Sequence record: OQ174501.1
DNA length: 64,000 nt
DNA from: Escherichia phage REP2
Reading direction: 5' to 3' (one strand)
Made by a program: the position numbers and the translations under genes. The notes under the pieces were generated by a model. The model ran no database searches, had not been told where the DNA came from, and was given only the letters and a program-made list of their open reading frames with translations. Positions 1 to 21,214 of the stretch are shown here, piece by piece (the stretch's first letter is position 1; every line of letters starts with the position of its first letter).

Positions 1-531
1 GCAGGACTAAGTACTATTATGGAAGGTCTGGAACGTTCTCCAGCGTTCATTCCTATTAAAGAAAAAGGAATTCCATACGAGTATTATCGTCTTCATCAAG
101 TAGACCAAATTAAAATTGCTCCTAATTTGCCAACGCAAATTCTTGACCGTTATGTAAATAGCGAAATGCTTGAACGCATGAGTAAATCCGGATTTGGTTA
201 TCAGCTGAGTAAGTTGGACAAAAAATATCTACAACGTTCTTTAGAATATACTCATCTCGAGCTTGGTGCATGTGGAACAATTCCGGTATTTTGGAAATCT
301 ACTGGCGAAAATTTAAAATTCCGTGTTGATAATACTCCTTTGACCTCGCATGATAGCGGTATCATTTGGTTTGATGAAAATGACATGGAATCAACATTTG
401 AGCGTATTAAAGAACTGTCATCTGACCGAACTCTTTATGACCGTGAACGCGAAAAAGCTTATGAATTTTTGTATCAGCATCAAGATTCAAGCTTCTGCTT
501 TAAAGAACAGTTTGACATTATTACAAAATAA
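1..531 (+). CDS. 3' part of a GT-B glycosyltransferase, by position probably the DNA alpha-glucosyltransferase; 5' end lies upstream of the window
   Basis: Frame open from nt 1 to stop at 529-531; LELGACGTIPVFW resembles the sugar-nucleotide binding region of retaining GT-B enzymes; lies upstream of gene 47 as a-gt does in T4. Confidence 0.5.
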   Translation, partial: AGLSTIMEGLERSPAFIPIKEKGIPYEYYRLHQVDQIKIAPNLPTQILDRYVNSEMLERMSKSGFGYQLSKLDKKYLQRSLEYTHLELGACGTIPVFWKSTGENLKFRVDNTPLTSHDSGIIWFDENDMESTFERIKELSSDRTLYDREREKAYEFLYQHQDSSFCFKEQFDIITK

Positions 532-707: not shown

Positions 708-1331
708 ATGAAAAAATATATAACTTATTTAACAATATATAGTGGAGATAAACTTCCTCCTTTTTATATTGGATCTACGTCTTTAGATAGGCATTTAGCT
801 GGATATCATGGTTCAGTTTTATCTAAAAAGTATAAGAAAATTTATAATAAAGAGCTTTCAGATAATCCTCACTTATTTGATTCATGTATTTTAGCTGAAT
901 TTGATACGCGTGAAGAAGCTATTAAATGCGAGTTATATTATCAACGATTGCATGATGCAGTTAAAAATCCATTATTCTTTAATATGTCATATGCTGCTCC
1001 AAAAGGTTCATTTGGAAGAGATAATAAAGGACAAAATCATCCATTATATGGTTCTCATAATTGTAAAGGAAATATACATTCACATGATCCATTAACAGGA
1101 AAATCTGCCTTTTTGCCTTATATTCCAGAAGGTTATGTAAAAGGAAGGTCAAATAAATTTAAAGCTTCATCACATAATAAAGGTAAAAAATGGTATAATA
1201 ACGGAGTTAAGCAAATGTTATGTCATGAACCTCCTGGTCCTGAATGGACAAAAGGAAAAATTAAAGAACTGGTTTCAAAAGCAGCTAAATTAGGATGGAA
1301 AAGACACCATGAAAATACTAAACTTGGGTGA
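708..1331 (+). CDS. putative free-standing GIY-YIG family homing endonuclease-like protein (seg-like)
   Basis: 207 aa; N-terminal YITYLTIY...FYIGST (GIY/YIG-like), downstream conserved R, E and N positions, C-terminal NUMOD-like G-x-NHPLYG and KGKKWYNNG motifs. Confidence 0.45.
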   Translation: MKKYITYLTIYSGDKLPPFYIGSTSLDRHLAGYHGSVLSKKYKKIYNKELSDNPHLFDSCILAEFDTREEAIKCELYYQRLHDAVKNPLFFNMSYAAPKGSFGRDNKGQNHPLYGSHNCKGNIHSHDPLTGKSAFLPYIPEGYVKGRSNKFKASSHNKGKKWYNNGVKQMLCHEPPGPEWTKGKIKELVSKAAKLGWKRHHENTKLG

Positions 1332-2775: not shown

Positions 2776-4460
2776 AGAATTTTAAACTAAACCGAGTTAG
2801 GTATCAAAATATAATGTCAGTAGGTGGAAATCCTATTGACATTCAATTAGATAAGGTTCAAAAAACTCTTATTACTGGACGAAATGGCGGTGGTAAGTCT
2901 ACTATGTTAGAAGCCATCACATTTGGGCTTTTTGGCAAGCCATTTCGTGATGTAAAGAAAGGTCAATTAATAAACAGCACAAATAAGAAAGAACTTTTAG
3001 TTGAACTGTGGATGGAATATGATGAGAAAAAGTACTATATCAAAAGAGGACAAAAACCAAACGTTTTCGAAATCACCGTTAACGGTACACGTCTTAATGA
3101 ATCTGCCAGCAGTAAAGATTTCCAAGCAGAATTTGAACAGCTTATCGGAATGTCATATGCCAGTTTCAAGCAGATTGTTGTCCTTGGTACAGCAGGGTAT
3201 ACCCCTTTCATGGGTTTGTCGACCCCTGCGCGAAGAAAGCTTGTGGAAGACCTGCTTGAGGTAGGAACATTAGCTGAAATGGATAAGCTTAATAAAGCAC
3301 TAATACGTGAATTAAATTCGCAGAACCAAGTGCTTGATGTTAAAAAAGATAGTATTATCCAACAAATTAAAATATATAATGATAACGTTGAACGCCAGAA
3401 AAAATTAACGGGTGACAACCTTACACGTCTACAAAATATGTATGATGATTTGGCAAAAGAAGCTAGAACGCTAAAATCGGAAATAGAAGAAGCTAACGAA
3501 AGATTAGTTAATATTGTTTTGGATGAAGACCCGACTGATGCATTTAATAAAATCGGTCAAGAAGCAGTTTTAATTAAATCAAAAATTGACTCGTATAATA
3601 AAGTCATTAATATGTATCACGAAGGTGGATTATGTCCAACCTGTTTGTCACAATTAAGTTCCGGTGATAAAGTTGTTTCTAAAATTAAAGATAAAGTTTC
3701 TGAATGTACGCATTCGTTTGAACAGCTTTCAACACACCGTGATAATTTAAAAGTTCTTGTTGATGAATACCGAGATAATATTAAAACTCAGCAGTCGTTG
3801 GCAAATGATATTCGCAATAAAAAGCAATCTCTAATCACGACGGTAGATAAAGCTAAAAAAGTTAAAGCAGCTATAGAAAAAGCATCTTCTGAGTTTATTG
3901 ACCATGCTGATGAAATAGCACTGCTTCAAGAAGAACTTGATAAAATTGTTAAGACAAAAACTAATTTAGTAATGGAAAAATACCACCGAGGAATTTTGAC
4001 TGATATGCTCAAAGATTCTGGTATTAAAGGTGCTATTATTAAAAAGTACATTCCATTATTTAATAAGCAGATTAACCATTATCTTAAAATAATGGAAGCG
4101 GATTATGTGTTTACATTAGATGAAGAATTTAATGAGACAATTAAATCCCGTGGTCGTGAAGATTTTAGTTATGCTTCATTCAGTCAAGGTGAAAAAGCAC
4201 GAATTGATATTGCTCTTTTATTTACTTGGCGTGATATTGCTGAAAAAGTTTCAGGTGTTAAAATAAGTTGTTTATTTCTTGATGAAGTGTATGACGGTGC
4301 ATTTGATGCTGAAGGCATTAAAAATGTAGCTAAAATTTTAGATGGTTTGAAGGATACCAACTTCTTCATAATTTCGCATAAAGACCATGATCCGCAGGAT
4401 TATGGACAGCATATTAAAATGGAAAAAGTTGGTAGATTTAGTGTTGCCACTATTAATTAA
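2772..4460 (+). CDS. 46: recombination endonuclease subunit gp46 (Rad50/SbcC-like ATPase)
   Basis: 562 aa; Walker A GRNGGGKST, long central coiled-coil, zinc-hook-like CPTC, C-terminal LFLDEV signature region; apparent GTG start. Confidence 0.9.
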   Translation: MKNFKLNRVRYQNIMSVGGNPIDIQLDKVQKTLITGRNGGGKSTMLEAITFGLFGKPFRDVKKGQLINSTNKKELLVELWMEYDEKKYYIKRGQKPNVFEITVNGTRLNESASSKDFQAEFEQLIGMSYASFKQIVVLGTAGYTPFMGLSTPARRKLVEDLLEVGTLAEMDKLNKALIRELNSQNQVLDVKKDSIIQQIKIYNDNVERQKKLTGDNLTRLQNMYDDLAKEARTLKSEIEEANERLVNIVLDEDPTDAFNKIGQEAVLIKSKIDSYNKVINMYHEGGLCPTCLSQLSSGDKVVSKIKDKVSECTHSFEQLSTHRDNLKVLVDEYRDNIKTQQSLANDIRNKKQSLITTVDKAKKVKAAIEKASSEFIDHADEIALLQEELDKIVKTKTNLVMEKYHRGILTDMLKDSGIKGAIIKKYIPLFNKQINHYLKIMEADYVFTLDEEFNETIKSRGREDFSYASFSQGEKARIDIALLFTWRDIAEKVSGVKISCLFLDEVYDGAFDAEGIKNVAKILDGLKDTNFFIISHKDHDPQDYGQHIKMEKVGRFSVATIN

Positions 4461-5170
4461 TGTTTGTGCTTACAGTTATCATTATGCCACCTTGATAAAT
4501 TTCCGAAAGTGGTAACTTTACCGCAATGGACGCAAGTACCAGTCTTTTCAGTTTTCTTGCGTCCATTTGGATTTTTCTTGCAGAAATTTCTATGCGCTGC
4601 GATAACGCATTTCTTGCCTATCATTCCGCAGAATTCGCAGGATGTTTCTTCAAGAACGATTGCTTTAAGCCCGTTTGAGATATTATTTCTGTGTTCTTTA
4701 GACATTGGTGGTCTAACTTTAGGATTAGGGTGATTTGGGCAGTTATCAAAATGCCAACGATTCATATTCCCGCTTAATCCAGACTTACCGCAATGAGGAC
4801 AAGTTAGTCTTGCTTTATTAGCTACTGCATCAGACATTTTCTTTCGTGTCTCTTGGGAGAATTCTTTGTTCTTTTCTATTTCCCAGAGTTTACGACGAAT
4901 CCAACCGAAAGTTTTATTGTTGCGTTTAGCGTATTTCGTAGAAACTGTCATCATGTTAGCAGCATAGACTAATTTTGGTTCAGAAGGATAAATTTTTACT
5001 AAAAGTTGATGAGCTACATAGTGCTCTTCTGGTGTTAAATCTACTAAGTTTGAAGCATCATCACTTCCATTTAAACAGCGCGGTATAATGTGATGAGATT
5101 CAGTATAACAATCAAGTTTTCGAGATTTAGCATTAGAGATTAACTTTTCATAAATTAGTTTATAATTCAT
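4457..5170 (-). CDS. free-standing HNH family homing endonuclease with three C-terminal CxxC zinc-finger repeats
   Basis: 237 aa on the opposite strand to all neighbours; HNH motif SHHIIPRCLNGSDDASNLVDLTPEEHYVAH; repeats CPHCG..RWHFDNC; SD AAGGAT upstream of the ATG. Confidence 0.7.
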   Translation of the reverse strand: MNYKLIYEKLISNAKSRKLDCYTESHHIIPRCLNGSDDASNLVDLTPEEHYVAHQLLVKIYPSEPKLVYAANMMTVSTKYAKRNNKTFGWIRRKLWEIEKNKEFSQETRKKMSDAVANKARLTCPHCGKSGLSGNMNRWHFDNCPNHPNPKVRPPMSKEHRNNISNGLKAIVLEETSCEFCGMIGKKCVIAAHRNFCKKNPNGRKKTEKTGTCVHCGKVTTFGNLSRWHNDNCKHKH

Positions 5171-12495: not shown

Positions 12496-13236
12496 ATGAT
12501 TAGTGACTCTATGACAGTTGAAGAAATCCGTCTTCATTTGGGGCTTGCATTAAAAGAAAAAGATTTCGTAGTTGATAAAACTGGCGTTAAAACTATTGAA
12601 ATTATTGGCGCATCATTTATAGCAGATGAACCGTTTATTTTTGGCGCTCTTAATGATGAATACATTCAGCGTGAACTTGAATGGTATAAATCTAAGAGCT
12701 TGTTCGTTAAAGATATTCCGGGTGAAACACCGAAGATTTGGCAACAAGTAGCATCTTCTAAAGGTGAAATTAACTCGAATTATGGCTGGGCTATCTGGTC
12801 AGAAGATAACTATGCCCAGTATGATATGTGTTTAGCTGAACTTGGTCAAAATCCTGATTCTCGACGTGGTATCATGATTTATACTCGTCCATCCATGCAA
12901 TTTGACTACAATAAAGATGGTATGTCAGATTTCATGTGTACTAATACAGTACAGTACCTGATTCGTGATAAGAAAGTCAATGCGGTTGTTAGCATGAGAA
13001 GCAATGATTGCTGGGCAGGCTATCGTAATGATTATGCTTGGCAAAAATACGTACTAGATAAATTAGTATCTGATTTGAATGCAGGCGACCCATCGCGGCA
13101 ATATAAAGCAGGTTCTATTATATGGAACGTTGGAAGTCTTCATGTGTACGAAAATCAGTTTTATTTAGTTGACCATTGGTGGAACACCGGTGAGACTCAT
13201 ATTGCTAAAAAGGATTATACTGGAAAATGGAAGTAA
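12496..13236 (+). CDS. 42: dCMP hydroxymethylase gp42
   Basis: 246 aa; thymidylate-synthase-like fold signatures; T4 synteny and size. Confidence 0.9.
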   Translation: MISDSMTVEEIRLHLGLALKEKDFVVDKTGVKTIEIIGASFIADEPFIFGALNDEYIQRELEWYKSKSLFVKDIPGETPKIWQQVASSKGEINSNYGWAIWSEDNYAQYDMCLAELGQNPDSRRGIMIYTRPSMQFDYNKDGMSDFMCTNTVQYLIRDKKVNAVVSMRSNDCWAGYRNDYAWQKYVLDKLVSDLNAGDPSRQYKAGSIIWNVGSLHVYENQFYLVDHWWNTGETHIAKKDYTGKWK

Positions 13237-13867
13237 ATGTGCCACATGTTTATAAGTATAAACATCCTAAAACTAAAAAGTGGTATATAGGAAGTCATGA
13301 TGGTCACAACCCGAATTATGATGGTTCGGGTGTAGTTTGGCAACATGCTAAAAAGAAATATGGAATAAAATCCTTTAATAAAGAAATATTATATGAAGGA
13401 CCAATGTTTAGACAGGTTGAAGAAATTATTTTAACTTGTTTAGATGCTGCTAATTGTCCGGATTCATATAATTTAAAGAATGAAGCATGGGGAGGAAGTT
13501 TTCCAGGCAAATTAAATGGAATGTACGGTAAAAACTATCTCCAGAAGAAAGATATAAGTGCGGAAATGCCTTTCGTGGAATCAAGCGTCCTGATCATTCT
13601 AAAAGAATGAAAGGCGAAGGTAATCCAATGTATGGTAAAAATGAGCAGGCATATGGAATTATAAATCGAGCCAAGGAAAATTCTGGTAAAACTTATGAAG
13701 AAATTTTTGGCGTAGAAAAAGCTAAAATAATTAAAGAAACGATGTCTAAAAATCGTAAAGGAAAACCTCATAATTTGATAGAAAAAATATGTCCGCATTG
13801 CGGACTAAAAGGACGTGGGCCAAATATGACAAGATACCATTTTGACAAATGTAAGGCACTTAAATGA
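13227..13867 (+). pseudogene. GIY-YIG homing endonuclease (seg-like) interrupted by a frameshift (frame 0 13227-13610, frame +2 13532-13867)
   Basis: N-terminal VYKYKHPKTKKWYIGS GIY-YIG motif; NUMOD-like GMYGKN / GNPMYGKN repeats continue across a frame change at the A5 run 13530-13534; C-terminal CPHCG..RYHFDKC zinc finger. Confidence 0.6.
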
Positions 13868-14706
13868 TTCAATTCGTAATTCCAAGTTATCAGCGTGTAG
13901 GGGCAGTTTCTGCCCTTAATATGTTTCCGACTGATTATGAACCCCATATTGTAGTGCGTGAACACGAAGAAAAAGCTTATTATGATGCTTATGGGTCTAG
14001 AGCTAAAATTATAACTATTCCTGATGATGTAAACGGAATTGCCGGTACTCGTAAAGCAATTACTGATATGTATGCAGGCCAACGAATCTGGATGATTGAC
14101 GATGATACTACTATTCGTATGAGTTCAATGCGAAAAAGAGATGACCGTCGTTGCGTGGATAAAGTCAATCAATTGACTCATGAACAGTTCTATGAATTGA
14201 TTCAATACGTCGAAGATGCCATGGATTGCGGGTATTATCACGGTCATGCTCGCCTACCAATTTTTAAAATTACTTCATCTTGGGGTAATTATCGTGAAAA
14301 TTCATATGGATTCACGAATACATGGTATGACCTTGGAAAACTTACGACAGAACAAATTGGGTATGGAAAAATTGATTTGTGCGAAGATATGTATGCATTT
14401 CTTAATTTAATTAATCAAGGTTATCCGCATTTGGCCTTGTTCAAATATCTGGTTGTATCTGGAAAAGCGCAAGCTCCTGGTGGGTGTAGTTCAATTCGTA
14501 GTAATTCTAAACATAATAGAGCGCTTGAGCAAATCAATAGAGAGTTTCCAGAGCAAGCTCGTTGGAAAACTTCTAATATCGAAAAACGAAAATCGTTGGG
14601 TGAAGAAGACGAGCCATTAAAGGTTCTTCGCATGTGTGTTTCGCGTAAAGAAAAATCAGAAGCATTTCATAAGTTTAATGCTATTCATCCAATAGCAGTT
14701 GATTAA
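13864..14706 (+). CDS. putative GT-A fold (GT2-like) glycosyltransferase, candidate DNA hydroxymethylcytosine sugar transferase
   Basis: 280 aa; N-terminal FVIPSYQR, acidic IITIPDD and DXD-type WMIDDDT motifs; occupies the slot between gene 42 and uvsX where T4 has beta-gt. Confidence 0.55.
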   Translation: MIQFVIPSYQRVGAVSALNMFPTDYEPHIVVREHEEKAYYDAYGSRAKIITIPDDVNGIAGTRKAITDMYAGQRIWMIDDDTTIRMSSMRKRDDRRCVDKVNQLTHEQFYELIQYVEDAMDCGYYHGHARLPIFKITSSWGNYRENSYGFTNTWYDLGKLTTEQIGYGKIDLCEDMYAFLNLINQGYPHLALFKYLVVSGKAQAPGGCSSIRSNSKHNRALEQINREFPEQARWKTSNIEKRKSLGEEDEPLKVLRMCVSRKEKSEAFHKFNAIHPIAVD

Positions 14707-14783: not shown

Positions 14784-15965
14784 ATGTCTATTGCAGATTT
14801 AAAATCCCGTTTGATTAAAGCTTCCACTTCTAAAATGACTGCTGAACTGACTACATCTAAATTCTTTAATGAAAAGGATGTAATTCGTACAAAAATTCCA
14901 ATGCTTAATATTGCTATTTCTGGTGCAATTGATGGCGGTATGCAGTCTGGTTTAACTATTTTCGCAGGGCCTTCTAAACACTTTAAATCAAATATGTCTT
15001 TGACTATGGTTGCGGCATATTTGAACAAATATCCTGACGCGGTTTGTCTATTCTATGATAGCGAATTTGGTATTACTCCAGCTTATTTGCGATCCATGGG
15101 AGTTGACCCGGAACGTGTAATTCATACGCCAATTCAGTCAGTTGAACAACTGAAAATTGATATGGTGAACCAGCTTGAAGCTATTGAGCGTGGTGAAAAG
15201 GTTATTGTATTCATCGACTCAATCGGTAATATGGCTTCTAAGAAAGAAACGGAAGATGCCTTGAATGAAAAATCTGTGGCAGATATGACTCGTGCTAAAT
15301 CACTGAAGTCATTATTCCGTATTGTTACTCCTTACTTTAGCATTAAAAATATTCCATGTGTTGCGGTTAACCATACAATTGAAACAATTGAAATGTTTAG
15401 TAAAACCGTGATGACAGGTGGTACAGGCGTAATGTATTCGGCTGATACTGTATTCATTATCGGTAAGCGTCAGATTAAAGATGGTTCTGATCTTCAGGGG
15501 TATCAATTTGTTCTAAATGTAGAAAAATCTCGTACCGTTAAAGAAAAAAGTAAATTCTTTATTGATGTTAAATTTGACGGTGGTATCGATCCTTATTCTG
15601 GATTGTTAGATATGGCTCTAGAATTAGGATTTGTAGTAAAACCTAAGAATGGTTGGTATGCTCGTGAATTTCTTGACGAAGAAACCGGCGAGATGATTCG
15701 CGAAGAAAAATCTTGGCGTGCAAAAGATACCAACTGCACTACATTCTGGGGTCCTTTATTTAAGCATCAACCATTCCGAGATGCTATTAAACGCGCTTAT
15801 CAGTTAGGTGCTATTGATAGTAATGAAATTGTTGAAGCTGAAGTTGATGAATTGATTAACTCAAAGGTTGAAAAATTTAAATCTCCAGAAAGTAAAAGTA
15901 AACCAGCAGCTGATTTAGAAACTGACCTCGAGCAGTTAAGTGATATGGAAGAATTTAATGAATAA
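14784..15965 (+). CDS. uvsX: recombinase UvsX (RecA/Rad51 family)
   Basis: 393 aa; Walker A GPSKHFKS, RecA-like core, acidic C-terminus. Confidence 0.9.
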   Translation: MSIADLKSRLIKASTSKMTAELTTSKFFNEKDVIRTKIPMLNIAISGAIDGGMQSGLTIFAGPSKHFKSNMSLTMVAAYLNKYPDAVCLFYDSEFGITPAYLRSMGVDPERVIHTPIQSVEQLKIDMVNQLEAIERGEKVIVFIDSIGNMASKKETEDALNEKSVADMTRAKSLKSLFRIVTPYFSIKNIPCVAVNHTIETIEMFSKTVMTGGTGVMYSADTVFIIGKRQIKDGSDLQGYQFVLNVEKSRTVKEKSKFFIDVKFDGGIDPYSGLLDMALELGFVVKPKNGWYAREFLDEETGEMIREEKSWRAKDTNCTTFWGPLFKHQPFRDAIKRAYQLGAIDSNEIVEAEVDELINSKVEKFKSPESKSKPAADLETDLEQLSDMEEFNE

Positions 15966-20695: not shown

Positions 20696-21214
20696 ATGGC
20701 TTACTTTAACGAATGTAGTCAACTGATTGAAGGCGCTGATAAAGCTCAAAATGAATATTGGGATATTCTCGGTGATGAAAAAGACCCGCTACAGGTTATG
20801 CTTGATATGCAGAAATCTTTACAGATTCGTTTAGCTAAAGATAAACCTGAATATAATCGTCATCCTGATGATTTGGCTACTGCCGGTGAAGTTGTTGATT
20901 GGTTGCGTAATCAGAAAGATTATATTGATGATGAATTCCGTGAACTTCTGACTTCTCTTGGTGGTATGAGTAATGGTGAAAAAGACGCATCTGCTGTATG
21001 GAAACCTTGGAAGTCGCAGCATGGTGAACGTCGTGAAACTCTGATTACTGATTTGTCTCCGCAAGACCAACTGGAAATTAAGTTTGAAATGATTGATATT
21101 CTCCATTTCGTTCTGAACATGTTCCAAGGTCTTGGTCTTACAGCAGAAGAAATCTTTAAACTTTATTACCTGAAAAATGCTGAAAATTTCGCACGTCAAG
21201 ACCGAGGTTATTAA
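20696..21214 (+). CDS. 56: dCTP pyrophosphatase gp56 (MazG-like)
   Basis: 172 aa from the ATG at 20696; MazG-like EExxE-type helices; T4 synteny. Confidence 0.8.
   Translation: MAYFNECSQLIEGADKAQNEYWDILGDEKDPLQVMLDMQKSLQIRLAKDKPEYNRHPDDLATAGEVVDWLRNQKDYIDDEFRELLTSLGGMSNGEKDASAVWKPWKSQHGERRETLITDLSPQDQLEIKFEMIDILHFVLNMFQGLGLTAEEIFKLYYLKNAENFARQDRGY

Follow-up and report, generated by a model that had tools for sequence, protein, structure and literature searches.

A probable T2/T6-type beta-glucosyl-HMC-alpha-glucosyltransferase gene at the T4 beta-glucosyltransferase position of Escherichia phage REP2

DNA glucosylation in T-even phages

The sugar pattern carried by hmC decides which host defences are able to attack a T-even phage. 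In phages T2 and T6, an alpha-glucosyltransferase (alpha-GT) acts first and the beta-glucosyl-HMC-alpha-glucosyltransferase (ba-GT, Ggt) then glucosylates the already alpha-glucosylated hmC, yielding gentiobiosyl-hmC (PMC13216743; PMC11078745). When ba-gt is deleted from T6, only alpha-glucosyl-hmC is found, the Brig1 glycosylase can degrade the DNA in vitro, and restriction is stronger in vivo (PMC11078745); the DNA of a T6 g-gt deletion mutant likewise becomes a substrate for the deglucosylating activity of BapA (bioRxiv 10.64898/2026.02.25.707755). Gentiobiosyl-hmC itself resists Brig1 in vitro and is not deglucosylated by BapA, and is still a target of GmrSD-type enzymes (PMC11078745; bioRxiv 10.64898/2026.02.25.707755; PMC13216743).

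The beta-glucosyltransferase of T4 (beta-GT) resembles ba-GT in using UDP-glucose as donor and in linking glucose to modified phage DNA through a beta-glucosidic bond (PMC13216743, PMC13390438). The two enzymes differ in their acceptor, which is the hydroxymethyl group of hmC for beta-GT and the first glucose for ba-GT. The phage TET-associated glycosyltransferases (TAGTs) form a sister group to GT2 and do not fall inside it; most GT-encoding phage genomes pair an alpha-GT or a beta-GT with a TAGT, the alpha-plus-beta pair of T4 being rare (6 of 753 genomes) (PMC13216743). Environmental Tequatrovirus isolates encoding an alpha-GT and a TAGT without a beta-GT were found by HPLC/MS to contain hmdC, alpha-glucosyl-hmdC and alpha-gentiobiosyl-hmdC but no beta-glucosyl form, and the position of the TAGT was explicitly described as syntenic with that of T4 beta-GT (PMC13390438). 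In phage EL, the three bases occur in a ratio of roughly 1:2:2 (PMC13390438).

Gene call, genomic context and family assignment

The window analysed here is a stretch of 64,000 nucleotides from Escherichia phage REP2 (OQ174501.1); its relevant features are collected in Table 1. The entire window aligns without gaps to the reverse strand of Escherichia phage REP3 (OQ174502, Tequatrovirus; 120854->56855), with 11 mismatches and 99.98% identity. The original prediction, made from the nucleotide sequence alone, described a GT-A-like transferase ORF of 280 codons bearing three motifs. The ORF listing confirmed an ATG-initiated ORF of exactly this span, and the motifs were located at residues 4 (FVIPSYQR), 49 (IITIPDD) and 76 (WMIDDDT) of its product. 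The ATG of the ORF shares bases with the stop codon of the preceding reading frame (ATGA). The ORF is regarded as a genuine gene and not as a chance reading frame because its product gives a full-length match to PHROG 842 ('beta-glucosyl-HMC-alpha-glucosyltransferase'; E=8.9e-89) and a copy is conserved in 474 phage records at a DNA identity of at least 90%.

Table 1. Location of the transferase gene, its pathway partners and the neighbouring mobile genes in the window
Feature	Coordinates	Strand	Basis
Alpha-glucosyltransferase (a-gt, GT-B), C-terminal 176 codons, cut by the window edge	1..531	+	PF11440, E=1.4e-83
ORF of 207 aa between a-gt and gene 47, probably a seg-like mobile endonuclease	708..1331	+	Weak GIY-YIG match (PF01541, E=3e-4, below gathering score); REP3 label 'HNH endonuclease'
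ORF of 237 aa between gene 46 and rpbA	4457..5170	-	HNH-like motif by eye; REP3 CDS 'homing endonuclease'
Gene 42, dCMP hydroxymethylase, 246 aa	12496..13236	+	PF00303 (thymidylate-synthase family); T6 gp42 length, likeness and gene order
Free-standing homing-endonuclease gene, 641 bp, frameshifted	13227..13867	+	GIY-YIG-like N-terminal motif; weak NUMOD3 and group-I-intron-endonuclease matches
ba-gt (ggt), probable beta-glucosyl-HMC-alpha-glucosyltransferase (TAGT family, predicted GT-A fold), 280 aa	13864..14706	+	ORF; PF20691; PHROG 842; T6/T2 identity; REP3 gene; fold matches
Codons for FVIPSYQR (residues 4-11), first beta-strand and next loop of the nucleotide-binding half	13873..13896	+	Invariance in alignment; model strand 1
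Codons for D79-D80-D81, DXD-type motif (WMIDDDT), expected to bind metal and the diphosphate of UDP-glucose	14098..14106	+	Invariance; model position; role inferred
UvsX, downstream of ba-gt	14784..15965	+	PF21134 and PF00154 (RecA)
Gene 56-like dCTPase/dUTPase, candidate, pathway context (excludes dCTP from the pool)	20696..21214	+	REP3 99641-100159, 'nucleoside triphosphate pyrophosphohydrolase'; T6 gp56 position

The protein also matches the Pfam family PF20691 (TAGT) with 40.0 bits against a gathering cutoff of 27.5, over profile positions 2-205 of 205; no NCBIfam model matches it. Alignment with T6 Ggt revealed 259 identical residues out of 261, and the identity is 99% to both the T2 protein (AP018813) and that of a second T6 record (AP018814). 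Of the activities contemplated in the original prediction, the T2/T6-like diglucosyl transferase is the one that these comparisons bear out. The REP3 gene annotated as ba-gt shows 100% DNA identity to that of the window. Homologues were detected by tblastn in 688 records, including a protein of phage EL that is 96.8% identical and a further group in T4-like phages of Klebsiella, Enterobacter and Salmonella with 60-80% identity. The ORF can thus be assigned, with a probability of about 0.94, to a T2/T6-type ba-GT that would perform the same task as in T2 and T6, the activity being deduced from the literature on these orthologues and from the base composition of EL DNA. The gene was already known, as it is annotated in the matching REP3 record, and its fold class, the synteny with T4 b-gt and the T6 deletion phenotype have all been published; the assignment is therefore a matter of routine annotation and not a discovery.

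The genes of the window and of REP3 are ordered as a-gt, 47, 46 (...) 43, imm, 42, an endonuclease remnant, ba-gt, uvsX, 40 and 41. The same order is found in T6 and T2, in which the transferase gene abuts gene 42, while in T4 the slot between gene 42 and uvsX holds b-gt and segA. The predicted location between gene 42 and uvsX was therefore correct, but ba-gt does not directly adjoin gene 42 as the 641-bp endonuclease insert intervenes. The product of gene 42 has the length of T6 gp42 and is very similar to it as judged by eye.

The GT-B fragment that had been noticed at the very beginning of the window proved to be the C-terminus of an alpha-GT. The listing of start-defined ORFs gives 19..531 for this fragment, although the frame is open to the first base; residues 225-400 of T6 alpha-GT align to positions 1-528 of the window (tblastn), and the fragment is 89% identical to residues 231-400. 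In REP3, a-gt and ba-gt are each present once, a-gt being of full length (400 codons) with 91.5% identity to T6. No T4-type beta-gt was found by tblastn anywhere in REP3 (167,921 bases) or in the window, the best E-values being 3.6 and 1.4, respectively; the presence of such a gene elsewhere in the genome was rejected on the basis of the search over all of REP3. The locus thus displays all the features that define the T2/T6 ba-GT family and can be tested in silico: orthology at 99% amino acid identity, the Pfam match, the position between genes 42 and uvsX, an alpha-GT partner, no beta-GT, and a predicted GT-A fold with a DXD-type DDD motif. The length of 280 aa is also that of the T2 protein.

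The family assignment by itself leaves room for a different acceptor, as PF20691 was built from transferases that accompany TET/JBP oxygenases, many of these transferases acting as primary DNA glycosyltransferases. Moreover, distant TAGT homologues stand alone, without any alpha- or beta-GT, in 288 of 753 phage genomes (PMC13216743), and some members of the family must therefore use another acceptor. That the present enzyme would likewise glycosylate bare hmC is nevertheless highly improbable. With the T6 enzyme it shares 99% identity, and deletion of the T6 gene preserves alpha-glucosyl-hmC and abolishes the second glucose alone (PMC11078745); phages combining an alpha-GT with a TAGT show no beta-glucosyl-hmC (PMC13390438), and a full alpha-gt is present in REP3.

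Predicted fold and modification scheme

A structural model of the 280-aa protein was obtained with AlphaFold2 (pTM 0.74). Its confidence is only moderate because the underlying alignment is shallow, with 11 clusters retrieved from a large protein-database search, mostly close relatives. The model matches the GT-A/GT2-like transferases TarP, WrtF, RmlT and TarS, in agreement with the GT-A fold originally proposed on the basis of motifs. A sequence search against the PDB returned nothing relevant, the best hit being an unrelated PNPOx-like protein (E=1.5). The matching bacterial enzymes (Staphylococcus aureus TarP and TarS, Listeria monocytogenes RmlT, and WrtF) share just 12-18% identity with the window protein and act on teichoic acid or glycan, whereas ba-GT acts on a sugar borne by duplex DNA. 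The likeness to GT2 is thus restricted to the level of the predicted fold: the protein would work in a GT2-like manner, yet its sequence does not place it in GT2, as none of the GT2 family models of Pfam matches it at E<=0.1.

Residues I6, P7, S8, Y9 and R11 as well as D79, D80 and D81 are invariant in an alignment of the window protein with database homologues down to 32% identity. Since the window protein is itself part of the alignment, it necessarily contains all 41 family-invariant residues. In the model, residues 3-7 make up the first strand (block-mean pLDDT of 88), and the DDD motif follows a strand at E74-77, a position which is the usual place of the DXD motif in GT-A enzymes. By analogy with GT-A enzymology, D79-D81 are expected to bind a divalent metal and the diphosphate of UDP, and a conserved acidic residue of the C-terminal half, for which E174/D175 are candidates, would serve as the catalytic base. 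An inverting mechanism is likewise expected, which would be consistent both with GT2-like enzymes and with the beta linkage of gentiobiose.

Apart from the slot that they both occupy between gene 42 and uvsX, T4 b-gt and the window gene have little in common. As anticipated, T4 beta-GT (PF09198) is unrelated in sequence: BLASTP detected no similarity, with a best local E-value of 0.28 over 10 residues, and PF09198 does not match the 280-aa protein at E<=0.1. The folds also differ, T4 beta-GT being a GT-B enzyme (PMC13216743) and the window protein a predicted GT-A one. The view that ba-gt is a T4 beta-gt diverged beyond recognition was rejected on these grounds.

The scheme most likely used by the phage is that of T2 and T6, since the C-terminus of alpha-GT is encoded in the window and REP3 possesses a full a-gt and no T4-type beta-gt; the chemistry and the phenotype are taken from the orthologue literature. 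The idea of a two-enzyme sugar modification of hmC differing from that of T4 is supported accordingly by the gene content. The scheme can be briefly outlined as follows. The gene 42 product would make 5-hydroxymethyl-dCMP, which the phage polymerase would incorporate instead of dC. Once the DNA is replicated, the GT-B enzyme alpha-GT would use UDP-glucose to attach an alpha-linked glucose to the hydroxymethyl group. A second glucose, also derived from UDP-glucose, would then be added with inversion by ba-GT to the 6-OH of the alpha-glucose, giving gentiobiosyl-hmC (beta-1,6-glucosyl-alpha-glucosyl-hmC). Catalysis would follow the inverting GT-A scheme, with the DDD motif holding the metal and the UDP diphosphate and E174/D175 as candidate base. 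The phage DNA is expected to contain a mixture of hmC, alpha-glucosyl-hmC and gentiobiosyl-hmC, without beta-glucosyl-hmC.

A modification unlike that of T2 and T6 would result if ba-GT transferred a sugar other than glucose, such as arabinose or another hexose. The T-even-like phages RB69 and NP do employ arabinose, also in di-arabinosyl form (PMC6024577, PMC13390438), and a model of moderate confidence does not reveal the donor specificity. Such a donor is however very unlikely in view of the two substitutions that separate the protein from T6 Ggt over 261 residues and of its 99% identity to the T2 enzyme. Furthermore, phages encoding proteins about 97% identical carry gentiobiosyl-hmC as established by HPLC/MS, while the phages that arabinosylate are of a different genus (Mosigvirus) and their target is 5-hydroxycytosine instead of hmC (PMC13390438). 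Distinguishing the alpha-GT and ba-GT set from the alpha-GT and beta-GT set of T4 is useful for host-range prediction and for the choice of therapy phages.

Sequence variants and neighbouring mobile genes

Few differences separate the window gene from its T2 and T6 counterparts. Compared with T6, the two substitutions are Y40 and D55 in the window for N40 and G55 in T6; the second T6 record has D where the window has N19, and about four substitutions (R12H, N19D, H106R and P251S, as read from the alignment) distinguish the T2 protein. T2 and T6 are also devoid of the frameshifted endonuclease insert that parts gene 42 from ba-gt in the window. No functional difference is implied by these substitutions or by the insert.

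Two T6 records display changes of another kind. In MH550421 (L002, 12924..12980), codon 10 is TAG where CAG is found elsewhere, and the CDS is annotated from Met20, giving 261 aa without the invariant IPSY strand. In AP018814 (L004, 2135..2974), the invariant DDD is one Asp codon short, leaving 279 aa. These changes may stem from mutations of individual stocks or from sequencing errors, or may be tolerated variants. The 261-aa annotation raised the possibility that the 19 N-terminal residues are an over-extension, which was rejected: codon 10 is CAG in the window, in T2 and in the other T6 record, and the IPSY segment is invariant down to 32% identity.

Should ba-gt be an inactive relic, the DNA of the phage would contain alpha-glucosyl-hmC only. 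The amber codon and the lost Asp of the T6 records are possibly damaging, which shows that stocks or records can bear lesions, and T2 converts just about 5% of its hmC to the gentiobiosyl form, as compared with about 72% in T6 (PMC11078745). A relic is nonetheless hardly to be expected here: the window ORF is of full length, its DDD motif and N-terminal IPSY are intact, the ATGA overlap with the upstream ORF is preserved, and 474 records keep the gene at the DNA identity mentioned above. T2 and T6 differ in this way despite enzymes about 99% identical, and the window allele is T2-like at both positions where T6 differs (Y40 and D55). It is unlikely, though conceivable, that substitutions in ba-GT set this difference, rather than expression level or alpha-GT. 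If Y40 and D55 did matter, the phage would be predicted to be T2-like and low in gentiobiosyl-hmC, and hence more exposed to defences specific for alpha-glucosyl-hmC such as Brig1.

The insert located exactly between gene 42 and ba-gt is a free-standing homing-endonuclease gene whose N-terminal motif (VYKYKHPKTKKWYIGS) is GIY-YIG-like. It occurs in 77 of the 474 related records and forms an intact CDS of 213 codons in Shigella phage JK23. In the window and in REP3, the shortening of an A6 run to five A near 13529 splits it into two ORFs (13227..13610 and 13607..13867). At both junctions, stop and start codons overlapping with the neighbouring genes are retained.

Two further ORFs, probably of this nature, were observed upstream. 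T6 has about 177 bp in place of the one lying between a-gt and gene 47. The other, on the opposite strand, occupies the place of gene 45.2 of T4 and T6, and contains, in addition to its HNH-like motif (HHIIPRCLNG...EEHYVAH), repeated CxxC/H zinc-finger-like segments.
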